From contig CAVVOP010000022.1 in the NCBI GenBank assembly GCA_963749915.1, positions 544,001 through 608,000 of the forward strand: a DNA stretch of 64,000 bases. The letters are read 5' to 3'. The position numbers and the translations under genes are program-made. This DNA is from an uncultured cyanobacterium (GTDB lineage: Bacteria; Cyanobacteriota; Cyanobacteriia; Cyanobacteriales; Cyanobacteriaceae). The notes under the pieces were generated by a model. The model did no database searches. It was not told where the DNA came from and saw only the letters and a list, made by a program, of their open reading frames with translations. Of this stretch, positions 8,399 to 25,449 are shown in pieces (within the stretch, counting starts at the first letter, position 1; each line of letters opens with the position of its first letter).

Positions 8399-9517
8399 AT
8401 GTATGATTGTATTATAGTTGGTTCAGGTCCAGCTGGTGGCACTGCGGCTTATCATTTGGCGAAAAAAGGGCATTCGATTTTGATTTTAGATAAGGCAGAT
8501 TTACCCCGTTATAAACCCTGTGGCGGTGGTGTTTCTTCTGTAATTCAAGAATGGTTCGATTTTGATTTTACCCCTGCTATTTCTTTAAAAACCAACACGG
8601 TTTATTGTACATGGGAACATGAAAAAGCCATCGCCGTAGATATGAAAGATTATCCGATTTGGATGGTGCGAAGGGATGTATTTGATTATTTTTTAGTACG
8701 ACAAGCCGTCAAACAGGGTGCAATATTGCAGGATAAAACAGAGGTTATTGATGTTGATTATAAAGGCGATCGTTGGATTGTGAAAACCTCTCAGGAAGAA
8801 TTTTTCGGACGTTATCTCATCGCCGCCGACGGTGCAAAAGGTACGATGGTGAAATTATTGGATTTCAAAAAACAAAAAAAATTAGTCTCCGGGGCCCTAG
8901 AAATCGAAATCCCTTTTGAGAATCCATCTAATGATACTTATTTTGAATTTGGCTTTGTGCACCATGGTTATGCTTGGAATTTTCCGAAAGCTGATGGTTT
9001 TTCAATGGGTGCTGGGGTTTTTGCCCAACAACGCAAGGCTCAAAACTACCATAAAATTATCGCCCATTACGCTAGTTTATTCGATCTTACCCTCGATAAT
9101 GCCATAGAACATGGACATCCCATCGCCTTATGGAATGGGGATCAAAAATTACACACCGATAACGCAATTTTAGCGGGGGAAGCGGCCTGTGTGGTTGATC
9201 CTTTTACTGCTGAGGGTATTCGCCCGTCTATTTTTAGCGGTTTAAAAGCCTCGGAAGCAATCCACAACGCCTTATCTGGGGATATTAACGCCTTAGAAAA
9301 ATATAGCGAAATTATGGTAGAACAATGGGGGAAAGAGATGATTTGGGCACAAAGATTATCACAAGTATTTTATCGTTTCCCTCGATTGGGGTATCAAGTC
9401 ATGGAAAAACGTCCTTCTTCAGCTTCGACGATGACGAAAATTTTTAGCGGGAAATTAAGTTATTCTCAAGTCGCACAAAAAGGTATTAATTTGTTAACTA
9501 AATCTCTCCTGCAGTGA
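8399..9517 (+). CDS. Geranylgeranyl reductase family FAD-dependent oxidoreductase
   Basis: IIVGSGPAG, PRYKPCGGG, LIAADGA, LAGEAACVVDPFTAEGIRPS. Confidence 0.9.
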   Translation: MYDCIIVGSGPAGGTAAYHLAKKGHSILILDKADLPRYKPCGGGVSSVIQEWFDFDFTPAISLKTNTVYCTWEHEKAIAVDMKDYPIWMVRRDVFDYFLVRQAVKQGAILQDKTEVIDVDYKGDRWIVKTSQEEFFGRYLIAADGAKGTMVKLLDFKKQKKLVSGALEIEIPFENPSNDTYFEFGFVHHGYAWNFPKADGFSMGAGVFAQQRKAQNYHKIIAHYASLFDLTLDNAIEHGHPIALWNGDQKLHTDNAILAGEAACVVDPFTAEGIRPSIFSGLKASEAIHNALSGDINALEKYSEIMVEQWGKEMIWAQRLSQVFYRFPRLGYQVMEKRPSSASTMTKIFSGKLSYSQVAQKGINLLTKSLLQ

Positions 9518-9900
9518 CATGCTCCCGACTTTGATGCTTACGCATACAGAGCGGGCTTCTCATCGACTCCAGCTATTGCTTCGGACGTTAGATGAGCTTT
9601 AAGAACGGAATGCCCTACCGCTGTGTATTTGATGTTTCTGGCTGCGTTGTGGTCACGGTCAAGAGAACATCCGCAATTTGAGCAGGAATGCCATCGGTCG
9701 GAAAGCTCTTTCTTGACCTTGTAACCACAATTCGAGCAGTCTTGAGAAGTACCCTTTGGATTCACCGCAATCGTAAGCAATCCGGCTCTTTCAGCCTTGA
9801 TTGAGAGAATTGAGAGGAATTGACCCCAGCCAGCATCATGGGTTGATTTTGCGAGTCTTGTTCTCGCAAACCTTTTGATATTTAACTTTTCATGTGCAAT
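9514..9900 (-). pseudogene. tnpB: IS200/IS605-family tnpB 3' fragment with transposon right end
   Basis: Minus frame IAHEKLNIK...HDAGWGQF...[14 protein letters not shown]...[18 protein letters not shown] (RuvC-II Glu, Zn finger, RuvC-III Asp); the N-terminal two thirds are missing; followed by GAAG-CCCGC...GTCGGG-AGCATG-TCAC. Confidence 0.88.
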
Positions 9901-9929
9901 TTGGGCGCATGGTAGGAGAGTATTTATAC

Positions 9930-12900
9930 TTAAGTTTGAGTTTCTTGACTCATTCTACGATTTTTCAAACACTCTCTCTTAGTTAAACTTAATAATCGAT
10001 CGAATAAAGGCTCACCGATCGTCATTAACTTCAATGAAGGGTATTCATCAAAAATATCGGGATAAAAAGTAACACGGTAACTTTTATGATCAAAATGTAA
10101 CAACCAGGTATTATTTTCTTGAGGTTTAAATCCAATTCCTTTGCTTTTTAGCAGGCGTGAATTAGTAACTATTTCTTCTACTTGTTTACCAGAGATAGGA
10201 CTAGGAGGAATTGATTCATTGATTAGTTGTAAATCTGCATCAACATTCATCGCCATCATCTGTCCTAAATCTGAACGAATGGAGGGATTATTCAATAAAT
10301 CTTCTAATTCACTTAATAACACACCCTCTTCCTCTGGATCTGCCGACATTACAGCTTGTTCAATGAAAGTAGGAACTTGAGCTAATATGGGCTGTAAATT
10401 GCCTACAACTGTTTCAAAAGCATTAATTCTGCTTCTTAACTTTTGATAGACTTTTGCCTCTACCGTGCCATCGTAATAAAAGTTGTGGATACGAATAGTT
10501 GCATGAATTTGTCCGATTCTATCTAAACGTCCTATTTGTTGCTCAATTTGCATCGGATTCCAAGGACAAGAATATTGAAATAAGACACCACAAGTTTGCA
10601 GGTTTAGCCCCTCACTAGCAGACTTAGTACATAATAAAATCTTGATGATACCTTCACGAAATAATTTTTTTATTTCTTCTTTTTTGACAGTTCTCCAATA
10701 ACCATCTTGATACAACTCTCCTCCTCTTCCTGAGTAACAAGCTATCTGAGAACCATATAACTGGACAAGTGTATCTCTAACATAATCCATTGTATCTGTG
10801 TATTGAAAGAAGGTAATTACTGTTTCTCGATTAATCAATTCCTGTCTTAAAAGGGTTAAATAGTGTGAAAGTTTGGTATCTTCTCCTGTTTGTTCGCATT
10901 GTCTTAAAATGTTTTCTAAATACTCTATTTCAGCAGGATCTGTTGGTTGAAAATAGGACTCTAATCCTTGAATGATATTATCATCAGCATCATCTAAGTC
11001 GATTAAGTCATCATCAGTAATGCTGATACCGTCTAAACGACGTTCTAAAGATTTTTTAATGGCATAAAATGAACTCGTTAAACGGCGGCGATACAATGTC
11101 ATTAAAAAGCCTAGTCCCTTTCTATTTTCTTGTTGGGCTAAGTTGTAAAAATGACGCACATAATCACTTACAGCTTGGTATAAGGGAATTTCTCGTTGTG
11201 GTTCAAGGACGATCGCATTATCAAAAACAATTCTATCTGGTATTGGTTTATCTAAAATGCCTCGGCGGTGATATTCCCTTAAAGTATCTCTGGTATGACG
11301 AAACATTAAATCTTTGAGAGGGGTATTCACAGTTAAAAATTGTCGGGAAGCATCGATAAAACTTTTATCTTGAGATAGTCGTTTGGAGTTAGCGATCGCT
11401 TTTCCTTTTTCCCATGTATCTTTAAGAGAATAGAGTAATAAACGGTTATTGTTTCTCAAATATTGCTCTAGTAAAGGACAAGACTTACCTCCTTGTTGAA
11501 AGTAATCTACGGCTAGAGATTGCCAAAATTCAAGTTTTTGAGGGTTAGCTGGTTGCGGTAAACTATCAAAATAGTCACAAAAGTTATCTTGATATTGCCA
11601 CAATCCTTTTAAACCAACCAGATGCAGTAAGTCAAAAATTTCTACCGCATCCATTTGCATAGGGGTAGCGGTTAATAGTAACAAGGATTTGGTTTTATCT
11701 TTCAACTTCCTGAGTAAACTCAGTAAGCGATTGGGGTTATCTTCCCTTTGTTGAGGGTTACGACGACGGGCATGATGTGCTTCATCTACTACTACTAAAT
11801 CCCAATCATTAGCCTCTAATAATTCGTTAGCACGCTCTTGCATTCGCACAAGGTGGGAAGAAGCTAAGATTAAATCGACTTCATTCCAAGGGTTAGAAAT
11901 AGGTGTAATAGTTTCTCCGTCAGGATTGGTAAAAATTCCTTTACTGTAACTCCAAAAATGAAGGTTAAATTTTTCTCTTAATTCTTCATGCCATTGAGGT
12001 TGTACACTAGCAGGTGCAAGGATTAAGACTCGTTTTGCTTGACGGGAAACTAATAAATATCTGGTGATAATACCAGTACTAATAGTTTTACCTAAGCCTA
12101 CTTCATCACTGATCAAAGCAGAGGTAGGAAACTTGCCAGTGAATTGTCTTAAGATTTTGGTTTGATGTATCCAAGGTTTGATGGGTATTGATTCTAAACT
12201 GTAAGCAAAACAGCCTTGATGTTGATGAATATTAAGTAAAGGCTCAAATAATTTTAACTCTCTTTCAATTTCTGTTGGGGTTAATTCAATCTTTTTAGCT
12301 TGATTTTTTTCTATTTCGTCATCATTCCCAATCCTATCATTTGATTCATCTCTACTAACTGTACTCTGTTCACTGTTATCTGTACTCTGCTCACTGTTCA
12401 CTACCAAATCATCTTCTTTTTTCCAGATGGGTTTAGTAGAGGGAGTATAACGCAGTAATTTTTTTTTAATGGCTTCAGGAATCTCAAAAACTCTGACATT
12501 TTCTGCTAAATTATTCCATAATTTATCAAATCTAAATTGCTCTTCATTAACTCTTTGTAAATCTCTTTCTCCTTCCCAAGCACAATAAACGTGAAATGAT
12601 TCTACATTTGTTTCCCAGCCTCCTATTGATTCATTATTGGAGCCACTAAAAGCAATTTTATTTCCTTCTCTATCTGTAAAAATACCCGTTTTTTCATGAA
12701 ATAATTTATGTTTATTTAATTGTTCTGGTAAGCCATTTTTTTGTAGAGGAATCGCAATTTTTATATCTAAAAAATGATGGGCTATTAACCAACTTAAAAT
12801 TTGAAAATGTTTAACCCCCGCAAAATTTTCTGGCTCTTTTAATTCTCTATTTAAACGGTACTCTAATTTCTCTTTTAATTCATAGCCAAGAGCGATCGCT

Positions 12901-13130
12901 TTCAAGTCATGATGACTAAATTCACAACCCATAATTAAACGCATTTTGCCCTCATTATAGAGCATTGCACCTAATCCTTGAGCTACTTTAGATAAAATGG
13001 CACTATTGAAAAAACCTGATTTACGATCATATGCCACTGCACTTTCAAGGGCGGGAATATAAAAGTCAGCAATGGGGTTATTTTCATTACTTGAGTAACT
13101 AATTAACCAATCTTTTTCTGTTAACAACAT
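9930..13130 (-). CDS. PLD nuclease-SNF2/SWI2 helicase fusion (restriction-like system effector)
   Basis: HEKTGIFTD (HxKxxxxD) plus [46 protein letters not shown]. Confidence 0.9.
12357..12403. repeat. In-frame heptamer repeats (TGTTCAC type) in the SNF2 linker
   Basis: Encodes [17 protein letters not shown]. Confidence 0.6.
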
Positions 13131-13181
13131 TACAGATTACAGTGAACAGATTACAGTGAACAGATTACAGTGAGCAGTGAA
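13131..13181. repeat. Heptamer/14-mer tandem array (TACAGTGAACAGAT)n
   Basis: About three copies of the 14-mer directly between the four-helix-bundle gene and the SNF2 start. Confidence 0.85.
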
Positions 13182-13187
13182 AAAATA

Positions 13188-13544
13188 TTATTTTTTGTTT
13201 TTGCTTGTCTTAATACTAGATATTAAAATTTTTAGGATTTCTTTCAAATCGAAAATAATTGAATTATAACCTTTTTCTCCAATATAGTTTGATTGATATA
13301 GTAATTCCAACCAATATTCAGATTCATTGGCTTCTTTTAAGGCGATAGATAACTTATGGATGAAATCGGCTTTGCTTTCGGCATACTCTGATTCCCTTAC
13401 CAAAGCACCAATAGAAGTACCACTTCTTAGAAGTTGTTTTGATAAAACATATTCTTTCTTTTCCTCTGTCAAATACTGATAAAGTTTAATAATTCTCAAA
13501 GCAAAAGCAAAAGACTTATTTTTCAAAAATGGTTCACTCATCAA
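13188..13544 (-). CDS. Four-helix bundle protein (23S rRNA IVS protein / bAvd-like)
   Basis: KSFAFALRIIKLY...LSKQLLRSGTSIGALVRES...SKADFIHKLSIALKEANESEYWLELL. Confidence 0.92.
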   Translation of the reverse strand: MMSEPFLKNKSFAFALRIIKLYQYLTEEKKEYVLSKQLLRSGTSIGALVRESEYAESKADFIHKLSIALKEANESEYWLELLYQSNYIGEKGYNSIIFDLKEILKILISSIKTSKNKK

Positions 13545-13572
13545 GAATTACTTTTAACACTTATAATAAACT

Positions 13573-13604
13573 ATTGTTCACTGTACTCTGCTATCTGTTC
13601 ACTG
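13573..13604. repeat. TGTTCAC-type heptamer array, inverted relative to 13131-13181
   Basis: ATTGTTCACTGTACTCTGCTATCTGTTCACTG. Confidence 0.75.
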
Positions 13605-13608
13605 AAAA

Positions 13609-14037
13609 GTGCAAGAATTTCAACTTAAGATAATTCCTTTAAAAGATAATAATTTTTTCTTAGAATTATATCAATGTGCTTACAAAAAAGCGGGACAAAA
13701 AAAACGCCCTTCGGCTCAATGTATGGGGAAAGTAAAAGGAAACAAGTTAGTTTTAATTAGACAGGCTATTTATCAAGTATTGAAAAGTAATAAATATAAT
13801 CCTCAAACTCTTTCTTATAAACGAAAATCTCCTTATATTTTAAATGAAGAATCAGGGACAAATTTAGCAATTTTATTTCAGACAATACAACCACTTAGAA
13901 AAGAAGACAAAATTGTTAATATTCGTGATGCAGTCATGGCAATGAGTAATGAAGAAGCTCATTATTGGTTTGCTAAAATTAATCACGGGAAACGTAATTC
14001 TGCTCTGAAGGCTTTAAGGATTTTACTGGGAGAATAA
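13609..14037 (+). CDS. Small system-associated protein, DUF3780-like
   Basis: GTG start; C-terminal MSNEEAHYWFAK...ALKALRILL resembles the DUF3780-type tail; occurs with DUF499, DUF1156 and SNF2. Confidence 0.55.
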   Translation: MQEFQLKIIPLKDNNFFLELYQCAYKKAGQKKRPSAQCMGKVKGNKLVLIRQAIYQVLKSNKYNPQTLSYKRKSPYILNEESGTNLAILFQTIQPLRKEDKIVNIRDAVMAMSNEEAHYWFAKINHGKRNSALKALRILLGE

Positions 14038-14102
14038 ACAATAAATAATTAATATTAAAGGCTATAGTTAAACTATAAGATCAATTATCTTTACTGTAAA
14101 TT

Positions 14103-14336
14103 ATGATGAGCGAATTAATCACTGTAACTTATGATGGGGTAGTATTAACCCCAAAAACAGCATTAGATTTGGAGACAAATAAAGAATATCACATTCAAAT
14201 AATTTCTGATTCTAATCAATCCTCAATCATCGATGAGTTAAAGACTTCTGCTGATTTATACGCTGAAATTTATCAACAAGATTTAGAGTTACAACAGTTA
14301 ACCGATGTTGCTTGTGAGGATTTTATTGAAGAATGA
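14103..14336 (+). CDS. Putative antitoxin (DUF104/AF2212-like N-terminus)
   Basis: ITVTYDGVVLTP...LE..KEYHIQII followed by an acidic tail; stop overlaps the toxin start (ATGA). Confidence 0.7.
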   Translation: MMSELITVTYDGVVLTPKTALDLETNKEYHIQIISDSNQSSIIDELKTSADLYAEIYQQDLELQQLTDVACEDFIEE

Positions 14337-14685
14337 TTTTGACAAGAGGAATGATTATTAATGTCAATCTTAATCCCACTTTAGGTTCAGAAACAGGAAA
14401 AATTAGACCATGTATTATAGTAACAAATAATATTTATAATCAACGAGTACCAGTTATTCAAGTTGTACCTATAACTAATTGGACTGAAAAAAAGCAAGAA
14501 TTAAAACCAATATTGAAATCAATCCTACTGTTACTAATAATTTAGATAAAAAATCTATTGCTGATTGTTTACAAACTCGTCCTATTGATTATAATTCTCG
14601 TTTTGTTAGTTTCAGAGGAGAATTAGAAAATGATCTTATCCAACAAATAGATACCGCCCTGAAAATAGTTTTTGCTTTAAATTAA
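14333..14685 (+). pseudogene. PemK/MazF-family toxin split by a -1 frameshift at an A7 tract
   Basis: RGMIINVNLNPTLGSETGKIRPCIIVTN; continues in the -1 frame after 14487-14493 as ARIKTNIEINP...KSIADCLQTRPID...QIDTALKIVFALN, stop at 14685. Confidence 0.85.
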
Positions 14686-14767
14686 TATTAATTCGATACA
14701 TTTATTTGAGAACGATCACTTTATAAACTCTAATTGAAGGTGGATTAGTAACAATTAAACATTTGTG

Positions 14768-14801
14768 ATTTTAACTCTTAAGAAGCTCAAAAACCGATCG
14801 C
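14768..14801 (+). repeat. Direct repeat copy 1 flanking the second TA module
   Basis: ATTTTAACTCTTAAGAAGCTCAAAAACCGATCGC; 31/34 identical to 15374-15407. Confidence 0.8.
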
Positions 14802-14848
14802 ACTTTATCCTATGATAGAAATACCCATTGTTTATTGTTTATTGAACT

Positions 14849-15064
14849 ATGTCTCAAATAATAACTGTTACCTATGACGGGGAAGTATTAAAACCTAGTC
14901 AAAAACTATTCTTAGATATAGGAAAAAAATATCAAATTGAATTGATAGACGATAATAACATACATTCTTTACCTGAAAATCAACCCCGAACAAATATACG
15001 CTCCCATGAATCATTTTTAAATGGATATGCTCCCGAAGATGAAGGATTATATGATGATTATTAA
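14849..15064 (+). CDS. Putative antitoxin (DUF104/AF2212-like N-terminus)
   Basis: IITVTYDGEVLKP similar to 14103..14336; C-terminus FLNGYAPEDEGLYDDY. Confidence 0.7.
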   Translation: MSQIITVTYDGEVLKPSQKLFLDIGKKYQIELIDDNNIHSLPENQPRTNIRSHESFLNGYAPEDEGLYDDY

Positions 15065-15380
15065 AGCAGGGGATTTTTGGGTAGCTAAAATAACTTTTAC
15101 TGATGGTATCAATTTTAAAAAACGTCCTGTGTTAATTCTTTGGTGTGACGGTGATGATGTTATTGTCGCTGTAGTAACATCCGCTCAACCTAGAACACAA
15201 ACTGATGTAGTTTTAAAAGACTGGCAAAAAAGTGGCTTAAAATTAGCCTCTACTGTACGTTTGTCTAGATTAGATTCTTTAGAAAAATCGTTATTGATAG
15301 CCAAAATTGGTCATCTCACTACTGATGATGCTCAAAATCTTCTCAATACTTGGAATAAATACATTAAACCTCAATTTTAA
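15051..15380 (+). CDS. PemK/MazF-family toxin
   Basis: GDFWVAKITFTDG...KKRPVLIL...VTS...DWQKSGLKLASTVRLSRL...IGHL; start overlaps the antitoxin 3' end. Confidence 0.85.
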   Translation: MMIIKAGDFWVAKITFTDGINFKKRPVLILWCDGDDVIVAVVTSAQPRTQTDVVLKDWQKSGLKLASTVRLSRLDSLEKSLLIAKIGHLTTDDAQNLLNTWNKYIKPQF

Positions 15381-15407
15381 CTCTTAACAAGCGCAAAAAA
15401 CGATCGC
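15374..15407 (+). repeat. Direct repeat copy 2 flanking the second TA module
   Basis: ATTTTAACTCTTAACAAGCGCAAAAAACGATCGC. Confidence 0.8.
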
Positions 15408-15473
15408 CTTTCATTCTCAGCATATAATAATCAATCACCATTAATCTTAGTTCGCAGAACGTAAAACTATTAG

Positions 15474-15493
15474 CCTTGTAATTCATTACAAGG
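15474..15493. repeat. REP-like palindrome upstream of the methyltransferase
   Basis: CCTTGTAAT-tc-ATTACAAGG, perfect 9-bp stem. Confidence 0.45.
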
Positions 15494-16130
15494 TGGGAAA
15501 ACTAAACACAACCCATAACTAATACCCATCATGAGAAAACAATTATTCATCGAAAAAATTATGCCTGTAAAATTCCTCAATGAGCAGGTATATTATGAAC
15601 ATGGCGGTAATCCTTTCAAAGGTTTACATCGCTGGTATTCTCGTAAACCTTTATCTTTTTCCCGTGCTTCGGTGTTGGCTTCCCTTCTACCTGCCGATAT
15701 TACCATGGAAGAGTTTTTATATGTGATGGGTTTATATGGTGAAGATGATGTCAGGTTTTGGGAAAGTAGTAATAAATCTGAGGAAGAAAAGGATAAACTG
15801 CGGAATAATAAGCAGGTTAGGTTATATAAATGTCCTCCTAGTAATAAGCAAATTCAAAGGTTTGAAGAACTTTGTGAGCGGGTTTGGGGTACGAAAAAAC
15901 CGTCAATTTTAGATGCTTTTGCTGGCGGTGGCAGTATTCCTTTTGAGGGTGTGCGTTATGGTTTAAATGTTTTTGCTTCCGATTTAAACCCCGTGGCGGT
16001 AATTACCATGAAGGCGGCGATGGAATATCCATTAAAGTTTGGGGCAGATTTACAAACTGATATTGATAGATGGGTTAAATATGTGGGAGATGAGGCGGAA
16101 AAAAGGTTAGCTGAGTTTTTTCCTAATTCA

Positions 16131-16317
16131 GATCCTCCCCAGCCCCCCTTAACAAAGGGGGGAGAAGAAAAAGTCCCCCTTAGTAAGGGGGATTTAGGGG
16201 GATCAAATCAGAGTAGTACGATCCCTTCTAGCCCATCTTCAAATACTTCCACCGCCGATTTAGGGGAATCAAATCAGGAGAGTGAGATCCCCCCCAACCC
16301 CCCTTTGAAAGGGGGGA
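16131..16317. repeat. In-frame GC-rich palindromic dispersed repeats
   Basis: CCCCCCTTAACAAAGGGGGG and GTCCCCCTTAGTAAGGGGGATTTAGGGGGATC, encoding PPQPPLTKGG...VPLSKGDLGGS...PPNPPLKGG. Confidence 0.8.
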
Positions 16318-16560
16318 GTAAGGTTAAAAATGCTTCAAAAGAGGGGAATACGGAAACGGTGCAAAATTATCTTTGGGCGCATACTGTTACTTGCCCTCAT
16401 TGTCATTCTACTATTCCTCTTTCTCCTAATTGGTGGATCGATCGCTCTCCTTCTGCAATCAAAAATCATCGTATTTGTGCGGTTAAACCTATCCCTAATC
16501 TTGAAGAAAAACGGGTTGATTTTGAGTTAATAAAAGGCAAAAAAGGTAAAGGGACAACTA

Positions 16561-16595
16561 TTACAGTTAACAGTGAACAGTTAACAGTGAACAAT
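16561..16595. repeat. In-frame heptamer repeats (AACAGTG/AACAGTT) in the methyltransferase
   Basis: TTACAGTTAACAGTGAACAGTTAACAGTGAACAAT, encoding TVNSEQLTVNN. Confidence 0.7.
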
Positions 16596-17868
16596 AGGGA
16601 GAGTGTAAATAACAGTCAACAGGTTATAGATTTTGATCCAAGTGATTACAATACCATCGGGCGAGGTGTAGGAAAATGTTGTAATTGTGGCAATGTGATT
16701 GAAGATGATGTTATTAAAAATCAAGCGCAAAACGGTAGGTTTAGGACATCAATTATATGCAATAGCTTTTAAGAAAGGAAAGGGAAGTTTAGAATTTAGA
16801 ATCCCTAATCAAATTGATTTAGAAGGTGTTAAAAAAGCAGAAGAATTTTTACAAGCTAAATCAGAAGAATATTAACGTTAATCAATTAATACCCTGAAAA
16901 CTACTTATAGTCATTGATGGTGAAAGAAGTACAGATGATTACAGAATATGGTATTGAAAAATGGCATAAATTATTTAACCCACGTCAATTATTAACCCTT
17001 GTTACTTATGTAGAAATAATTAACGAAGCCAAGGCAAAAATACAAGCAGAATATGAACCAGAAAAAGCCGAAGCAATTGTAACTTATTTGGCTTTGGTTT
17101 GCGATCGATGTGTTGATAGAAATTGTCGATTAGGCAGTATGGGATCCTTCAAGAACATAATGCACAAGGTAGCATCAGCACAACACGCATTAAATTTAAT
17201 GTGGAATTATCCTGAAACTAATGGAAGTAGATAGATTATGGAATGGTGTGCTGATACAGTTGCAGACGATTTTACGAAACTTTGCGAATATGTAAACCAG
17301 CAAAAAAAATCAAATCAACTAAATCTTTTAACAGAAAATTTCACTGATAAAACTATTAAAATTAACCTCGAATCTGCCGATAGTTTGTATCATATTCCTG
17401 ATAAAAGCATCGAAGCAATCATTACAGACCCACCTTATTACGGTACAATTCAATATGCCGAATTAGCCGACTTTTTTTATGTCTGGCAAAAGCGCACATT
17501 AGGAGATATATTTCCCGATATTTTCTGGCAAGAGTTAACGGATAAAGATAGAGAAGCCGTTGCCAACCCTTCCCGTTTCCGCAACATGGGAGTATCCGCT
17601 GATGAGTTAGCCAAACAAGACTACGAAGCAAAAATGGCGATGGCATGGAATGAAGCCTATCGGGTTTTAAGAGACGATGGGGTATTAACAGTACAATTTA
17701 ACCATAAAGAATCAGGGGCATGGGATGTATTAGCAAAAGCCTTAATTGATGCAGGTTTTGAAATTACCGCTAGTTGGGCAGTTTCCACCGAAAACCCCCA
17801 AAATCTCCATCAAGCAAAGAAAAACAGCGTATCTAGCACCGTTATTTTAGTATGTAGAAAACGTCAAC

Positions 17869-17949
17869 AAGTCCCCCTTACTAAGGGGGATTTAGGGGGA
17901 TCAAGTCAAGGGAATGAGATCCCCCCTAGCCCCCCTTCAAAAGGGGGGA
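17869..17949. repeat. Second in-frame GC-rich palindromic repeat in the methyltransferase
   Basis: AAGTCCCCCTTACTAAGGGGGATTTAGGGGGATCAA...GAGATCCCCCCTAGCCCCCCTTCAAAAGGGGGG; near-identical to 16171-16207 and similar to 16284-16316. Confidence 0.8.
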
Positions 17950-18696
17950 ATAATAGCTTTCAGGGTGCGTGGTGGGATGACTTACGCCCCGAAGTCGCTA
18001 ATCAAGTAGAAGCAAGGGCAAGTTACTTCGAGGATAATGATATAACGGGCATTGACTTATATTTAAGTGCCTTTGGAGTCGCCTTAAACGTCTTTTCCAA
18101 GTCTTACCCCATCCTCGACAATACAGGTAACGAAGTGCGCCCAGAAGTTGCCTTTGCCGAAGCCAGAAAAGCGATCGCCAGTTATCGTTTCCGTAAACTA
18201 TTACAAACCGATACCGCAGGATTTGATGCCTTAACCCAATGGTATTTACTAGCTTGGGATGCTTTTTCTGCCCGTGAATTTCCTTTTGATGAAGCGAGAC
18301 AGTTAGCCTTAGCCATTGGTGGATTTAACGTTAATGACTTAACTAAGGAATATAAACTAATTGATTCAGCTAGTGGCACTTGTAAATTTTTAACTCCCCA
18401 ACAACGGCTGAAAAAACGAGCTTTTACCGTTAATCCTCAAGAATTTACCATTAAATACTTAATTGATGGTTTACACGCCTTAATAGCGGTTTATGAAGAT
18501 GAAGGCAACCTCGAAGCAGTACGCCAATTTATGAAGAAAACGGGGTTGAATAGTAATGATTTACTAACCAAGACGATCGAAGTTGCGTTTAAAGTGATTC
18601 CCGATAATGTCAAGGAGAAACAGACGTTAGTTAATTTGTGGTTGGGAATTGATGAGATTAAAACGAAGGTTGTTTATTTGCAGGGAGAGGTTTTTT

Positions 18697-18738
18697 AAGT
18701 AAGAAGTAAGAAGTAAGAAGTAAGAAGTAAGAAGTAAA
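18697..18738. repeat. Heptamer tandem repeat (AAGTAAG)5-6
   Basis: Five perfect units and one imperfect unit right at the methyltransferase stop. Confidence 0.9.
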
Positions 18739-18756
18739 AAGTTTAGTTTATGAAAA

Positions 18757-20145
18757 ATGATGAAGATAAAAGTAAGAAATTTAGGCACATTAAAACAAGC
18801 TGAATTCAATTTAGGTGAATTAACAATTATATGTGGTGGTAATAATACAGGAAAAACCTATGCTACTTATGCTCTATTTGGTTTTTTATCTATTTGGAGA
18901 CAAACCATAGAAATTGAGATTAAACAAACTCAAATTAATCAGCTTTTTCAGGAAGGAGTTATTAGTATTAACTTAGAAAAATACTTAAATAATGCAGAAA
19001 ATATTCTTAGGAAAGGATGTAAAAAATATACGAATATTCTGCCTAAAATTTTTGCCTCGTCCCCTGAAAACTTCAAAAATACAGAGTTTTTTATTGATAT
19101 AAATATATCAGATAATAAGCTCAATCAAAATCATGAAGAAATTATAGGATCAACTAACAAAAAGATATTTTCTTTAGTTAAATCAGAAAATAGTAATGAA
19201 TTAATTGTTACTTTACTCACGGAGGAAGAAAATCGAAAAATTCCCGATAATGTAATTAGAGAAATTATAGGTTCAGCCATAAAAAATATTATTTTTAAAC
19301 AGTTTTTTCCCAATTGTTTTATTGCTAGTGCTGAAAGAACAGGAAGTGCTATCTTTCGTAAAGAATTAAATTTTTCTCGTAATCGTTTGTTAGAAGAAAT
19401 TAGTCAAACTGATAAAAATATTGACCCCATTGAACTTTTACTTAAAGGTTATGATGATTATGCTTTACCAATTAAAGAAAATGTTGAATTTATTAGAAAT
19501 TTAGAGACTATTGCTAAAAAAACCAGTTTTGTAGCGGAAGAAAGTCCAGATTTATTGGAAAATTTTGCTGATATTATTGGTGGACAATATACTGTTACTA
19601 AAAATGATGAACTTTATTATATTCCTAAAGGAAAAAGAATCAAGTTATCAATGGATGAAAGTTCTAGTGCTGTACGTTCACTATTAGATATTGGTTTTTA
19701 TCTCAAACACATAGCAAAAAAAGGAGATTTATTAATTATTGATGAACCCGAATTAAACTTACATCCTGAAAATCAGAGAAGAATGGCTAGACTTTTCGCT
19801 AGATTAATTAATTTAGGGATCAAAGTATTTATCACTACTCATAGTGATTATATTATTAAAGAATTAAATACTTTAATTATGCTTAATCAAGATAAAACCT
19901 ACCTCAAAGAAATTGCTCAAAGAGAAGGTTATCAAGAAGATGAATTATTAACTGTGGAACAAATTAAAGTTTATATAGCAGAAGAAGCATTAATAAAATT
20001 AGATAATCGTCAGAGAAAAAGTCGTTGTCAAACTTTAACGCTAGCTAATATTACTCAAGATTTAGGCATTGAAATTAGTAGTTTTGATACTGCTATAGAA
20101 ACAATGAATCGTATTCAAGAAGAAATCATCTGGGGAGAAGAATAA
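18757..20145 (+). CDS. ABC-type/AAA_15-21 ATPase (defence-associated)
   Basis: IICGGNNTGKTY Walker A, SSSAVRSL signature, LLIIDEPELNLHPENQ Walker B/D-loop, FITTHSDY H-loop. Confidence 0.88.
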   Translation: MMKIKVRNLGTLKQAEFNLGELTIICGGNNTGKTYATYALFGFLSIWRQTIEIEIKQTQINQLFQEGVISINLEKYLNNAENILRKGCKKYTNILPKIFASSPENFKNTEFFIDINISDNKLNQNHEEIIGSTNKKIFSLVKSENSNELIVTLLTEEENRKIPDNVIREIIGSAIKNIIFKQFFPNCFIASAERTGSAIFRKELNFSRNRLLEEISQTDKNIDPIELLLKGYDDYALPIKENVEFIRNLETIAKKTSFVAEESPDLLENFADIIGGQYTVTKNDELYYIPKGKRIKLSMDESSSAVRSLLDIGFYLKHIAKKGDLLIIDEPELNLHPENQRRMARLFARLINLGIKVFITTHSDYIIKELNTLIMLNQDKTYLKEIAQREGYQEDELLTVEQIKVYIAEEALIKLDNRQRKSRCQTLTLANITQDLGIEISSFDTAIETMNRIQEEIIWGEE

Positions 20146-20147
20146 GG

Positions 20148-20711
20148 GTGTATAGTTCTAATGATATAACTATTCTTGATCAGATAATTAAAGATAATGC
20201 CAAAGTACCTTTAATCGATAATTATGGTAAAAAACAAGTAAATTTAACTGAAACTCATGGAACAGATTATTCTGTAACTATAAGAGGAATTCCTGATGAT
20301 ACTTTAATCATAAAAATAGATCTATTTGAAGCTCCTAAAAGTTTATTTCAAGGAATAAAAGGGGAATGTAAACGTTGTGATTATGTAATTATTTCTGATT
20401 CTCCGATAAAAAAGATGATTGTATTAATTGAAATGAAAGCAGGTAAAGCCTTAGAGAAAGAAGTTATTCAGCAATTAAAAGGAGGTAAATGTTTAGTGAA
20501 ATACTGTCAACAAATAGGACAAGAGTTTTGGCGGGAAATAGACTTTTTGAATAATTATGATTATCGTTTTATTAGTTTAAAAAATATTAGTATATCTAAA
20601 AAATCTACTAGGAACAAGAAACAAGCACAATTACATGACTCTCCTGAAAATATGTTAAAAATTTACTCCCCAAAAGGATTACAATTTAATCAATTAATTG
20701 GTCAACCATAA
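20148..20711 (+). CDS. Hypothetical protein, possible PD-(D/E)XK nuclease partner of the ATPase
   Basis: KRCDYVII...VLIEMK...QQL pattern; starts 2 nt after the ATPase stop. Confidence 0.55.
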   Translation: MYSSNDITILDQIIKDNAKVPLIDNYGKKQVNLTETHGTDYSVTIRGIPDDTLIIKIDLFEAPKSLFQGIKGECKRCDYVIISDSPIKKMIVLIEMKAGKALEKEVIQQLKGGKCLVKYCQQIGQEFWREIDFLNNYDYRFISLKNISISKKSTRNKKQAQLHDSPENMLKIYSPKGLQFNQLIGQP

Positions 20712-20754
20712 TCTATTAAAATATTTATTATTTACTACCGATTTCAATTTCTTC

Positions 20755-20786
20755 ATTGTTCACTATAGTCTGTTCACTGTTCATTG
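20755..20786. repeat. TGTTCAC-type heptamer array overlapping the DUF499 stop codon
   Basis: ATTGTTCACTATAGTCTGTTCACTGTTCATTG. Confidence 0.75.
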
Positions 20787-23700
20787 ACAGAGGCTTTCAA
20801 ATTAAGTCGCTCTACAGGATTACGTTTTAAAGCATCAAAAATCATATTAATTTCTGTGCCGTCAGGAGTAACAGGTGATGTAAAGTCGATCGTCAAACTA
20901 AGAGAAAGATTAGCTTGAGCAGAAGGAGAATTAAGCAAACTATTTAAAGTATTAAAAAAGCTCTGAAATCCTCTGGTATCACCCTGATATTCTAAACGAA
21001 TAAACTGCTCTTGTGCTTGAATAGTAACAGTTTGGTCAATCAATATTGACCATAATTGAGGACGATTTAATAAAGATAAACTGGTGCCTAACTTGCGGTA
21101 ATCCATCACTGAATCAACAGTAATAATCAAGGAAGAAAGAGCAGTAATTTTATAGTCTGAACATTGATCTTTTAGGTAAGTAAAAGTGGCGTTTACAGTA
21201 CCTTCTTTGACAATTTCTGATGGTTTTAACTGAAAAATATCAGGTTCAGGATTAACAATATATCCCCCAGAAGGCTCTTTTACTCCTATGGTTGCTAAAC
21301 TAACCGTGGTTTCTTGAATAGCTGTTTCCCCACTACCATAGTCAGCTACGACTTTAAATATCGTTAACTTCTCAATTGCAGTGGTATATTCATCACTAGG
21401 GCGAAAATCATCCTTGATTAAACTATTATCCTGATAAAGACTAACCATCAAAGCACCTTTCGCTTTCCATCGCACCCTCACCTCTTTTGTTTCTTGATTA
21501 ATTACTTGAGCCGAAAGCTGAATTACTTTTGGTTCGGGGGGTTTTAATATACCTCGACGATAAAGAGTGTAATTGTCGGAAAATTCGATAATCTCAGGTA
21601 AATTAGATAAACCTGTATCAGTTTTGATATACATTTTCTCACCTAGCTGCATATCCCAAACCCCTTCAGTTAAGCCTTGACGAATAGTATCCCGTAATAA
21701 AGATATCTCTGCATCTAGTAAAAACTTCAAACTTAAATCCTTGGCAAAGGTTTCTTTCAGTGCCATAGTGCTGATAGAATCTAAACCTTTTGCCCATACC
21801 TTCTGCATAATATAAGCAGGTGCATAAGCTTTTAAAGGCTCATCGGAACGTACTTTTTGACAATCCTTAAGGGCTTTGAGTATGACATCTTGTTGGTTAT
21901 TTTTCCCCTTAACAGTGCTAGAATCTTGAGCTGGTAAAACGTAATGCTTTAAACCATCGGGAGCTTTGACTGGGTCATTGTCAGGATAGAATAAATGACG
22001 ATAGGCATTAGTTAAAGCAATTCGTACCTCTAAATCCTTCGCCCCATACCTTTGTTTTAACTGTTTTTGTTGACTTTCTGATAAGTCTTCTAAACGAGTT
22101 TGAGAATTAAGAATATTGTGGATAGCCTTATATTCTCTAGTAATATCGATCGCTCTGTCTATTTCCGCTTTATTTGCCAATAAAAATAGTAAACGATTAC
22201 GATAGATCCTAAATCGTCCCGATTCACCTGTATTATTAAATATTTGAGTAATGAAACTGGGAGCAGTATCAGTGGCATTAGTAATAATGGCTTCATCAAA
22301 ATCGAGCACGCACAAGGCGATTTCATCTGCCCGATCATCTACATCAGAAGAACTATCAGGGGCAGAAATTAAAGTAAATAACTTTTTAGCAAAAATACTG
22401 TCTCGACGGGTGCGTAATTCTTCTTTGGCTTCACTACGTCCGATTTGTTCTTTTTCTTCACTAATAATTTTATTAATTGATGGCTCTTCCTTAAACCGAG
22501 CAATATTGCTAATCGGATCTACATCTAAATACCAGGCTACTGCTTGTAAATTATTCAAGGCTCGATCGACAAAATTAGCATCTAACCCTGGTGTTAATAA
22601 AGATAAATTTAATTCCCCTAAGCGAATTCCCGCACTAATACCATAATTGAGAGAATGGAGGAAAATAGTTCTCCCAATATAGGAAGAAAAAGGGGGTTTG
22701 CCTGCTGTTAACCATTCTTCATCTTGTTGTTGAGCGTAAGCGAGTCTGCCACTGGGATTATAAATATCGGCATTAACCGCAGGACGCATGGTTCCTCTCT
22801 GTATTCTTGAGGTTAAATCATCGGTAATATTTTTTTCTAAGCCCACTGGTAAATGATGGGTATGAATCAAAGGAATATATTCAGGGGGATTTTGCCACAG
22901 ATAACGCACTAATTGAGCCAGTAATCTTAAGGCACCCCTGGTCTTCTGAAATTCAGGAATAGCAGCTATTTTCTTGGTTAAGAGGTTAAATAACTCAGGA
23001 TGAAAAGGATAACTTTGAGCGATCGCTTCTCCATAGGTAGCATCTTTGCAACTATCAGGTAAGTTGAGATGATTGGTTTTATAAGTTTGCAAATAAGTTT
23101 TAGCGATAGTGTCAGCGGTATCAACGTTAACCGAATCAAACAAACGCTGTTTGACTATATTGTAAATTTCGACATCAGTACTAGGAGTTAAGACTCTTTC
23201 TTGACGGGCAGAAGCACTAATTAACTCTTTTAATTCATTGGTATCCTCCGCAAAAGTATCACTACTAGAAGCCAAAGAATAGACTAAAACTAAATTATTA
23301 GTAGCAGAAGCTAAATCCATCAGGGAGAAAAGAAAATTAACCACCTGTTTAGCTAAATTACTATCTTGTATTGCTTTCCCTTTGGCAGTACTAAGATAAC
23401 GGGCAATTTCATCCAACATAATCACCGTGGGTCGATTATTCACTAAACGTTCAATCACAGAAGTACCGGGACTGACTCCAGAGCGATCGCTTTTTTGTAA
23501 AAGTTGATAACCTTCTATGTGTCCTATTTGATAAGCAATCTCTCCCCATAAGGTATAAGTCGTGATACCGGTATCTTGATGATAAATGCCATTCTCAGGA
23601 TCTAAATCTCTCCCATCAATAGCTGCCACTTGAATGGTATCGGCAGGGATAATCTCTAAATCAGTAAAACGTTCTAAAGCCTGAATCTTTCTGCCCTGTT

Positions 23701-23998
23701 TAGCAATATGCCAAATAGCGATTTGGTCATGGGTTTTACCGCCACCAAAACTAGTTTCTAATCTTAAAATGGGAGAACCGCTACCCTTGCCGCTGAGACG
23801 AGTAAATACCTCTCCGATTAAAGTTTTTATACCATCGGTGGGAAATGTATTAGCAAAAAATAAATCAGGGTTTTGATATACTTGTGGAGCTTTTCCTTCT
23901 ACTACTAAACGCAATTTAGCGGCAAAAAGATCTAACTGTAAATCGCCTGATAATATTTCACCTCTGGGAGTACAACTATCTAAAACAGAAGGGAGCAT
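20774..23998 (-). CDS. DUF499 family AAA+ ATPase
   Basis: C.PR.EIL.G...FAA.L N-terminus, LETSFGGGKTH Walker A, TLWGEIAYQIG, IMLDEI, SYPFHPEL, FQKTRGALRLLA. Confidence 0.92.
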   Translation of the reverse strand: MLPSVLDSCTPRGEILSGDLQLDLFAAKLRLVVEGKAPQVYQNPDLFFANTFPTDGIKTLIGEVFTRLSGKGSGSPILRLETSFGGGKTHDQIAIWHIAKQGRKIQALERFTDLEIIPADTIQVAAIDGRDLDPENGIYHQDTGITTYTLWGEIAYQIGHIEGYQLLQKSDRSGVSPGTSVIERLVNNRPTVIMLDEIARYLSTAKGKAIQDSNLAKQVVNFLFSLMDLASATNNLVLVYSLASSSDTFAEDTNELKELISASARQERVLTPSTDVEIYNIVKQRLFDSVNVDTADTIAKTYLQTYKTNHLNLPDSCKDATYGEAIAQSYPFHPELFNLLTKKIAAIPEFQKTRGALRLLAQLVRYLWQNPPEYIPLIHTHHLPVGLEKNITDDLTSRIQRGTMRPAVNADIYNPSGRLAYAQQQDEEWLTAGKPPFSSYIGRTIFLHSLNYGISAGIRLGELNLSLLTPGLDANFVDRALNNLQAVAWYLDVDPISNIARFKEEPSINKIISEEKEQIGRSEAKEELRTRRDSIFAKKLFTLISAPDSSSDVDDRADEIALCVLDFDEAIITNATDTAPSFITQIFNNTGESGRFRIYRNRLLFLLANKAEIDRAIDITREYKAIHNILNSQTRLEDLSESQQKQLKQRYGAKDLEVRIALTNAYRHLFYPDNDPVKAPDGLKHYVLPAQDSSTVKGKNNQQDVILKALKDCQKVRSDEPLKAYAPAYIMQKVWAKGLDSISTMALKETFAKDLSLKFLLDAEISLLRDTIRQGLTEGVWDMQLGEKMYIKTDTGLSNLPEIIEFSDNYTLYRRGILKPPEPKVIQLSAQVINQETKEVRVRWKAKGALMVSLYQDNSLIKDDFRPSDEYTTAIEKLTIFKVVADYGSGETAIQETTVSLATIGVKEPSGGYIVNPEPDIFQLKPSEIVKEGTVNATFTYLKDQCSDYKITALSSLIITVDSVMDYRKLGTSLSLLNRPQLWSILIDQTVTIQAQEQFIRLEYQGDTRGFQSFFNTLNSLLNSPSAQANLSLSLTIDFTSPVTPDGTEINMIFDALKRNPVERLNLKASVNEQ

Positions 23999-24021
23999 TT
24001 GTTTTTGGAAAATAAATTAAT

Positions 24022-24441
24022 AGAACTCTTGCAAAAATAAAATGAATATGATTATTCTAATTGTAATGGGCGATCGCCAAAAACAAAAATCGTCAAAATT
24101 AGTTGAATCAGGACTTAATGCATAAAAAATACTTATGTTATTCTAAAAAATCAAGAAAAAATAATTATTAATAGAAAAAAAATCAGAAATTAACCATAAT
24201 AATTATCGGAAACTTTCAGATAGTTAAATAGATTTTGTTTGGAGTTCATATTTGACTATTTCTACTAATAAATCATAGGTTTTTTTAGTTACTCCAAACC
24301 TTCTCTTAAACTTTTTTGGTGGCAATTTTTCTATTTTTTAAAATTTCATAAGCAAATCTTATACTTTTCTAGTAAGCGATCGCTTATATTAACAAATTTT
24401 GACACTTAATTTTAACTGATATTCAATTTTGCAAGAGGTTT
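24022..24441. mobile_element. Putative MITE (~420 bp, non-coding)
   Basis: Terminal inverted repeats AGAACTCTTGCAAAA / TTTTGCAAGAGGTTT (13/15); very AT-rich interior with no ORF; TAAT on both flanks. Confidence 0.55.
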
Positions 24442-24525
24442 AATATTATTACTTGAATTTCAAGCCTGCCAGGCATGACTAATATTTGCCTTAATAAGTC
24501 ATTTTTTATCTAGTTTGGGCTGGTT

Positions 24526-24669
24526 CTAACGGATTTTGTGGGTGGGCAATTTTTCGGCTGGTCGGCGACCATTCATCGAGCTGGCAATCAACAAATTGTG
24601 CAACCAGTTGTCATGGTATTGAAATCCATTGAGGTCGTTAAAGGGCGAAACGTGCCTGACTAGCGATAT
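24526..24669 (-). pseudogene. C-terminal remnant of a probable transposase
   Basis: GC-richer patch; the minus frame SPFNDLNGFQYHDNWLHNLLIASSMNGRR resembles C-termini of uncharacterised transposases (recalled, not searched). Confidence 0.4.
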
Positions 24670-24699
24670 AGGAGATTGTTCGTCTCCGCTTCGCTCCGA

Positions 24700-24763
24700 C
24701 TCACGCGCCTCTCATCCCGACGCTCACCCTATCGGTTAGAGCTCGGGGCTTCCCGGCTAGGAG
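24700..24763 (-). mobile_element. IS200/IS605-type left end hairpin
   Basis: Minus strand TTAG|CTCCTAGCCGGGAAGCCCCGAGCTCTAACCGATAGGGTGAGCGTCGGGATGAGAGGC shares the GAAGCCC.G.CTCT...GTCGGGA core with the right end at 9514-9560. Confidence 0.62.
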
Positions 24764-24876
24764 CTAAAGCAAAAGGCATAGGGAATATTTGAAAGGTTCA
24801 GTAAACCTATTTTATTTAAGGTTGACTCGATCATATAATAGTTGTAGGTTAACTTATAATTTCTCTTGAAAATAAT

Positions 24877-25449
24877 TTGACAATTCCGAATCAAAAAAAA
24901 CAGTTAAGAAAACAATTTATCAAAAAAAGATTACAACTTTCTCCCACTCAATGGCAAAAAAAAAGCGATCGCCTATGTCAAAATTTAATTGATAGTCAGA
25001 TTTTTCGCCAAGCTAAAGTGGTTTTAAGTTATGTTAGTTTTAAACAAGAGCCTGATTTAAGTTTATTGCATCAACAAGCCGACGTTATTTTTGGTCTACC
25101 CCATTGTCAAGGAAAAAGTTTAATCTGGCATCAATGGCAATGGGGGGATAAATTACAAAAAAATTCTTATGGTATCAGTGAACCTTTTTCAGATTCTCCT
25201 TTAATTGATATTAATACCGTTGATTTAATTTTAGTTCCAGCAGTGATGGGCGATCGCAAAGGTTATCGATTAGGTTACGGCGGCGGTTATTACGATCGAA
25301 TGTTAGAATTACCGTCATGGAAAAATATTCCTACCGTTGGGGTTGTGTTTGATTTTGCTTATGTGTCTGAATTGCCCCAAGAACCATGGGACAAAAGTTT
25401 GTATTGTATTTGTACAGAATCAGGAATCAAAAAGAAAGAAAAGAATTAA
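24877..25449 (+). CDS. 5-formyltetrahydrofolate cyclo-ligase
   Basis: KKQLRK, YGISEP, DLILVPAVMGDRKGYRLGYGGGYYDR, PQEPWD. Confidence 0.93.
   Translation: MTIPNQKKQLRKQFIKKRLQLSPTQWQKKSDRLCQNLIDSQIFRQAKVVLSYVSFKQEPDLSLLHQQADVIFGLPHCQGKSLIWHQWQWGDKLQKNSYGISEPFSDSPLIDINTVDLILVPAVMGDRKGYRLGYGGGYYDRMLELPSWKNIPTVGVVFDFAYVSELPQEPWDKSLYCICTESGIKKKEKN

Follow-up and report, generated by a model that had tools for sequence, protein, structure and literature searches.

According to excerpts of the literature, on which this and the following citations draw, elements of the IS200/IS605 group typically contain 600-2000 nt (PMC10734217) and are almost cargo-free (PMC10691335, PMC10734217). Members such as IS608 and ISDra2 carry subterminal hairpins with a guide 5' of each hairpin and insert 3' of a tetranucleotide without duplicating it. 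We analyzed a 64,000-nt stretch of DNA (the window, G000:C22:544001-608000) from a cyanobacterium, an origin with which gene content and relatives agree. It holds a 15,250-bp defense island (9514-24763) between a reductase-family gene and a 5-formyltetrahydrofolate (5-formyl-THF) cyclo-ligase gene, bracketed by the left end (LE) and right end (RE) of one IS605 family. The unit shares the above features, and divergent tnpA and tnpB remnants, with the group, including the cyanobacterial TTAG/TCAC elements G609:C128 and L056, but it measures 15,250 bp instead of 1.35-1.87 kb, has no functional tnpA or tnpB and has a foreign interior. We consider it probable that the IS605 element inserted first, that a block, probably plasmid derived, entered it later, and that deletions made the compact form in place.

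Nonautonomous relatives differ from the window unit in the opposite direction: miniatures of 0.2-0.5 kb, seen in the window's own IS605 family, shrink and carry nothing, whereas the window unit grew. PATEs, which we take to be nonautonomous IS605 miniatures, belong to this comparison. The mini-IS605 of Helicobacter pylori likewise kept both ends and lost its genes by internal deletion, and in cagPAI its insertion lies within the island, not around it (PMC2924317). Among cargo-bearing TnpB elements, the example named in the excerpt belongs to the serine-recombinase branch, carries one or few genes and keeps TnpB (PMC10691335); the window, in contrast, has Y1-type ends, a multisystem defense block and a destroyed TnpB.

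The cargo is a known defense system, and its bracketing by IS605 ends is the new element. No defense island bracketed by IS605 ends was described in the full-text literature searched, which consisted mostly of open papers; comparable loci could be present in supplementary material, for example that of PMC10691335 and PMC12839542. A DUF499 ATPase, a DUF1156 methyltransferase and a PLD-SNF2 helicase define the type-2 BREX-related (BR) system, in which a stand-alone DUF3780 protein occurs in 98% of taxa (PMC12839542) and which has been characterized as MANTIS (10.64898/2026.09.23.753747). Like type-2 BR, MANTIS and Gao_RL in these two sources, and like Hma, the window has a DUF499 ATPase, a DUF1156 N6-methyltransferase, an N-terminal PLD nuclease fused to an SNF2 helicase and a small fourth gene.

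IS605-family ends and the empty site

The outer boundaries of the island are formed by the following features.

8399..9517, plus strand: geranylgeranyl-reductase-family gene, left flank (TIGR02032 above cut-off)
9514..9566, minus strand: IS605-family RE with guide GAAG, hairpin and cleavage site TCAC
9514..9900, minus strand: tnpB 3' stub, the last 120 of about 406 codons, with one extra base near 9873
24649..24663, plus strand: last four tnpA codons and stop, in common with the tnpA remnant of the C8 copy
24696..24763, minus strand: IS605-family LE with 12 nt, guide AAGC and hairpin
24764..24768, minus strand: target TTTAG, not duplicated
24877..25449, plus strand: 5-formyl-THF cyclo-ligase gene, right flank (directly after the reductase gene in G002)

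An earlier note on this DNA had proposed the outer coordinates (9514 and 24763) and the end motifs, which were borne out as written. In what follows, G000 is the source genome, G and L labels are comparison genomes and loci, and X1 to X7 are metagenome runs. An LE profile from 33 left ends of other genomes, with the window left out of training and most members found using the window end as the query, matched 24767-24696 (E 1e-19). An earlier profile, made from six TGAG-type ends found only via right-end similarity, also matched the window LE (E 6.5e-9). An RE profile matched the window right end (E 2.9e-12), and the tnpB stub matched PF07282 (E 6.8e-23) and was 90% identical to the L056 TnpB over 105 amino acids. 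That both ends belong to one IS family, as the note had claimed, agrees with complete elements of 1.35 and 1.87 kb elsewhere that carry both: L056, a 1,348-bp tnpB-only element, is 90.5% identical to the window LE (95 nt) and 88.6% to the RE stub (387 nt), and G609:C128, a 1,872-bp element with tnpA and tnpB, matches both window stubs. The window retains about 115 plus 387 bp of a G609:C128-like element, and defense genes stand in place of tnpA and most of tnpB (about 1.37 of 1.87 kb), again as the note had it. LE and RE hairpins of one family thus lie on the same strand, as in the IS605 group, while the intact tnpA and tnpB of an autonomous element are lacking, only four tnpA and 120 tnpB codons being left. 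We conclude that the ends at 24763 and 9514 are cognate.

A second family copy in the source genome (C8, 118006-117112) has decayed to 895 bp with a tnpA remnant, its interior also having been lost through two deletions. It is identical to the window over the first 18 nt of the LE after TTTAG and 97% identical over 182 nt at the RE, where the window hairpin departs from that of the C8 copy by one stem mismatch; X1 has the same allele as the window. Past these 18 nt the LE interior of the C8 copy differs and its hairpin is replaced, yet it lies 3' of the same TTTAG.

The target was examined in several ways. A target-free pattern search of two collections gave nine matches, six of them unrelated and three cyanobacterial IS ends; all three followed TTAG, an unbiased check of the target. 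The LE was matched in 51 of 401 genomes. Among the 29 non-self loci, 15 were followed by tnpA or tnpB, and TTAG stood at the cut in 27, a count biased by a query that included the target. Guide and target covaried in the 33 left ends (TTAG with AAGC in 27, TGAG with CAGC in 4, and 2 exceptions). The rule of guide-cleavage pairing includes a fourth base pair. In IS608 the guide pairs with the cleavage site, which predicts such target-guide covariation (PMC3201880, PMC5934647). Hairpin folding energies did not exceed those of shuffled sequences (z of -0.28 and -0.83 for the two ends), and free energy was therefore rejected as proof of the ends; their assignment is based on homology and covariation. 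The stub at 9514..9900 would include the region expected to encode the omega RNA, and Rfam gave no matches, including for this region.

We then looked for the unoccupied site. Seven metagenome runs hold the left flank and four were aligned to the window (X1, X2, X3 and X6), at 88% likeness and with a bridging rule of 31 nt on the short side; contigs drop rare forms. Runs X4, X5 and X7 and the coverage holes of X2, of which 37% was read, were given no weight. In X2, one 197-nt contig (depth, 16.4) consists of 167 nt equal to 9347-9513, with no differences, followed by 30 nt from 24764, thus skipping 15,250 nt with no letters in between. This is a single contig whose short side is one nucleotide below the bridging rule, and its joint falls, to the base, on the 9513/24764 junction predicted beforehand by the note; both flanking words are single copy in G000. 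The last base and stop codon of the reductase gene now come from the IS right end. Joining the flanks in silico gives it back a stop, as predicted, and yields 372 amino acids ending in LLH-stop instead of the present LLQ-stop (372 either way). With cognate ends and an exact empty site, the claim that both ends stem from a single insertion 3' of TTAG without duplication was upheld. The X2 joint may represent a never-occupied allele or an excision scar.

Five of six congeners had a match to the reductase gene, and in one of the six, G002 (about 83%), it adjoins the cyclo-ligase gene with synteny on both sides. A nucleotide-level empty site in congeners was rejected, as the 66-bp gap of G002 does not align.

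Inner joins and the history of the island

Next to the IS605 stubs lie remnants of other insertion sequences, a feature absent from the earlier note.

9898..9982, minus strand: IS5-family left-end stub, 85 bp, within the last helicase codons (85-88% to three C21 copies)
24015..24451, unstranded: internally deleted IS5-family element with both ends kept (95-98% to the ends of longer copies on C8, C19 and C34)
24520..24650, unstranded: right-end stub, 131 bp; source element unclassified, terminal inverted repeats of 22 bp

The tnpB stub is fused to the IS5-family stub (transposase of the family, DUF4096/NF033580) via a 3-nt overlap at 9898-9900, and the tnpA remnant to the 22-bp-repeat stub via a 2-nt overlap at 24649-24650, the terminal repeats of both foreign stubs pointing toward the cargo. 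The C19 copy of the element at 24015..24451 belongs to NF033581.

These joins suggest a series of events. The end of the reductase gene received an ordinary 1.4- to 1.9-kb IS605-family element 3' of TTTAG, as seen from the cognate ends and the exact empty site. A type-2 BR block with DDE-type insertion sequences at its bounds, probably plasmid derived, would then have entered the element, either through direct illegitimate capture or because a circle bearing another IS605 copy recombined with it in a single crossover. On either side, deletions at microhomologies may subsequently have trimmed away tnpA together with the greater part of tnpB and of the adjacent insertion sequences; the resulting joins are observed, and their order is the presumed part. 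The two stubs share no overlapping sequence, and homologous recombination therefore cannot loop the block out, while its toxin-antitoxin pairs may help to keep it. The present state would be a fixed defense island in an IS605 shell, from which TnpA in trans could formally excise it. In support of a first insertion and later capture, each inner join connects what is left of the IS605 element to a remnant of another insertion sequence by an overlap of 2-3 nt, and the C8 copy likewise decayed by two internal deletions. The same reading is favored by the lack of these ends at the related defense loci fetched, by the occurrence of the system in other genomes of the order and on plasmids, and by the small usual size of IS200/IS605 elements and of lagging-strand single-stranded stretches. 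There was no sign of the island having moved as a unit.

Timing can be approached through X1, a near-identical strain. Its cargo depth covers 29 of 30 bins and is similar to that of the flanks. The RE lies on the reductase gene at this very site (8932-9542, 0 differences, 29 nt past the junction), and a contig of about 24652-24995, placed by two variant rows of equal depth, spans the LE and flank. Behind 9900, tnpB continues; the LE contig ends at the tnpA join; and a helicase-IS5 record (9898-10273, 0 differences) has 25 extra letters departing from the window. X1 thus seems to have the IS605 element at the site and the cargo without the two inner joins, and having the ends without the joins would imply that the compact form arose in place after insertion. 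Several points weigh against this account. The X1 picture was assembled, among the records listed, from contig ends at depth 4-5, with a short side of only 29 nt at the RE junction. X1 may be a strain mixture, or could reflect a longer composite inserted whole by TnpA, and the pattern is also compatible with an assembly misjoin. A plain IS605 element at the site was not seen as one contiguous sequence, neither inner join had independent support among the records listed, and a plasmid DNA search for the donor gave nothing above 80% identity.

That TnpA inserted the whole unit by peel-and-paste, as the 15.25-kb compact form or as a longer two-copy composite, which would make it a true HUH cargo transposon, appears improbable to us. 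Its expected traces are present, namely, the ends, their orientation, the guide-target pairing and the precise empty joint. X2, in addition to the empty joint, has LE copies on continuing tnpA (the sequence running on into tnpA before 24652) and helicase pieces with 3-6 differences per 200-560 nt, and its empty contig breaks off exactly 30 nt beyond the joint, as might a graph meeting an occupied allele; the assembly graph has k=31. A plain insertion followed by capture would, however, leave identical outer junctions. Moreover, neither a second site nor a second cargo-bearing LE-RE pair was found among the loci searched, X1 seems to lack the inner joins, the length is 8-10 times the usual single-stranded DNA (ssDNA) window, and a private A in the LE stem would pair a T that IS608 needs extrahelical (PMC3201880). 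The earlier note had left open two alternatives: of these, the landing site is favored, and cargo transposition is unsupported, with no positive evidence (ends in 0 of 38 related defense loci, no second site among the loci searched, no intact cognate TnpA or TnpB in G000, X1 seemingly without the joins). More doubtful again is an insertion that is real but with the cargo misjoined in the G000 assembly, the true genome having a plain IS here and the block elsewhere. Both joins do connect IS stub to IS stub, as often happens at contig ends, X1 shows neither, and clustered single-base insertions in the methyltransferase gene, three of them absent in X3, suggest a weak local consensus. Against this stand an assembly without N in which near-identical multicopy repeats are resolved inside contigs, the uniqueness in G000 of all four stubs above 90% identity (except for 182 nt in common with C8), the fact that only 3 of 95 core orthologues are broken, and like internal deletions in other insertion sequences of G000, one of them in four identical 295-bp copies.

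Least likely of all is that the island now spreads by TnpB homing, in which a cognate TnpB in trans and the omega RNA of the 387-bp RE stub would cleave unoccupied alleles, recognizing TTTAG plus reductase sequence, and all 15 kb would be copied in during repair. No length limit from ssDNA applies to homing, and cyanobacteria are polyploid. The stub retains the tnpB 3' region and the RE, the empty allele restores the motif and guide match, and TnpB has been described to act in restorative homing and gene drive (PMC13565253; 10.1101/2025.02.20.638934). Yet no intact cognate TnpB was found in G000, where the best full-length copies share 34-38% identity with the family protein, and the empty allele persists in X2. 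Taken more broadly, a mobile cassette run by IS605 proteins in trans, with TnpA moving the unit whole as ssDNA (the X2 joint then being an excision scar), TnpB homing it, or both, is rather unlikely. G000 has no intact cognate TnpA either (a 74-aa remnant at 85%, the longest other copy at 48%). The private A, at 24743, is C in 32 of 33 relatives and T in one, with C also in X1, X2 and X6, and according to the fold it would pair the T that is extrahelical in the consensus hairpin. No RE-LE circle joint occurred among the joints listed for the metagenome runs. Excision drops as element length grows. Lagging-strand ssDNA spans about 1.5-2 kb (PMC5027513).

If the IS605 element did come first, the locus is a clean example of an IS as a landing pad that fixed plasmid-type defense genes in a chromosome, a useful but ordinary case; a mobile cassette would instead be a natural Y1-transposase cargo element of about eight times the usual size. 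Either way, a natural 15-kb unit with both cognate ends and a base-exact empty allele lends itself to two questions: up to what length TnpA can move DNA, and whether a defense island can be dragged through a population by TnpB homing. It is a natural test, and not proof, of whether such transposons carry large cargo.

The 22-bp-repeat family occurs elsewhere in G000 (C8 at 400147, 406901, 710076 and 723135; C32 at 177924-179076) and includes four miniatures of identical length, 295 bp. The longest open reading frame of a longer relative (340 amino acids) matched no Pfam or NCBIfam family and is possibly an unclassified transposase. In run X3, a contig at window position 24068 connects the HIP1 site at 24069, within the IS5 remnant, with the left end of the 22-bp-repeat element, which hints at HIP1-site recombination between IS families.

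Distribution of the cargo and of the ends

Close relatives of the DUF499 ATPase occur in 51 of 301 genomes of the order, and full-length relatives with 58-69% identity are found on 15 cyanobacterial plasmids. We fetched 40 regions, corresponding to 38 defense loci, apart from the most fragmented loci, each with some 3 kb of flank on the far side of the ATPase if the contig was long enough; 27 show both ATPase and helicase. Neither the LE nor the RE of the window's family was found in any of the 40 regions at E<0.01, while the window control was. One of them has a tnpB gene nearby, with no end match.

Eight LE loci were extended (five without tnp genes or first-pass RE and three second copies). 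Four of the eight were miniatures, the RE was absent within 8.6-19.9 kb in four of the eight, and none bracketed cargo. Viral contigs contained neither an LE match nor a DUF499 relative. The note had suggested looking for the same cargo between these ends at other TTAG sites; no such second site was found among the 9 collection matches, 29 LE loci, 8 extended loci and 38 defense loci. Within the data searched, the occurrence at multiple sites that marks an HUH cargo transposon was thus not seen.

Defense genes of the island

The interior of the island encodes the following genes.

9930..13130, minus strand: PLD-nuclease/SNF2 helicase (MtsD/HmaA-like), essentially full length
13188..13544, minus strand: four-helix-bundle (23S rRNA IVP) protein, between short heptamer repeats
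13609..14037, plus strand: DUF7680 small protein, at the place of DUF3780 in type-2 BR systems
14103..15380, plus strand: two AF2212-like antitoxin/PemK-MazF pairs
15531..18698, plus strand: DUF1156 N6-adenine methyltransferase, broken in this assembly
18757..20711, plus strand: AAA_15 ATPase and partner gene, PDC-M47/PD-T4-4-like pair (PADLOC E 1.5e-235 and 3.1e-77)
20774..23998, minus strand: DUF499 AAA+ ATPase (MtsA/HmaC-like)

The core of type-2 BR/MANTIS, that is, the DUF499 ATPase, the N6-methyltransferase and the PLD-SNF2 helicase, is present; for the helicase, PLDc_2 alone matched weakly (E 0.0011), and the PADLOC PLD_Helicase and PbeA matches were strong. Unlike described type-2 BR systems, the window has DUF7680 (E 2.6e-43) instead of DUF3780 (no match in the window at E<=10), an inverted middle block, also found in G006, G211 and G195, a methyltransferase gene broken in the assembly, and accessory toxin-antitoxin pairs and a PD-T4-4-like pair inside. 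Judged from its genes, the cargo would act like type-2 BR/MANTIS. We do not file it as a canonical type-2 system, because DUF7680 replaces DUF3780.

Clustered single-base indels at about 16730-17235 leave the methyltransferase gene with nine in-frame stops. At least six such indels cluster there, whereas core genes are rarely broken; low local read depth could account for the cluster, for instance if only part of the sequenced culture had the island. X3 lacks three of the extra bases, and the first PemK gene, frameshifted at 14486 in the assembly, has an extra base in X1, X3 and X6 that restores its frame; part of the gene damage may therefore be consensus error. A foreign composition was rejected: the GC content of the island is 0.346 versus 0.375 and HIP1 sites are not depleted (7 in 15.25 kb), which points to a cyanobacterial donor.

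The DUF7680-methyltransferase block (window 13600-20770) is colinear in most order-level relatives, and the window shares its inverted form with three family relatives; G004 shows a third arrangement, with the methyltransferase forward and DUF7680 reversed (loci compared, L069, L071, L073, L156, L168 and L135-L169). The block thus seems to flip repeatedly. A recent inversion as part of the insertion was rejected: the order common to G006, G211 and G195 makes it older than the island event.

Several repeats lie in and around the block. A 41-nt motif upstream of the methyltransferase gene (15457-15497), possibly a recombination or regulatory site, recurs in both orientations around the same defense system in relatives (L070, 11239-11278 and 15525-15565; L073, 17517-17566). 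Palindromic GC-rich repeats stand in frame inside the methyltransferase gene (16130-16320 and 17866-17953), with further copies at other places in the genome. Heptamer tandem repeats occur on either side of the four-helix-bundle gene (13135-13180 and 13575-13605) and lie at block edges and inside genes (16560-16600 and 20755-20785), with another run (18698-18737) between the methyltransferase gene and the ATPase pair. On contig C17 of G006 (L121-L122, L069), the same defense system is part of a larger island that also has type I restriction genes and adjoins chromosomal housekeeping genes.

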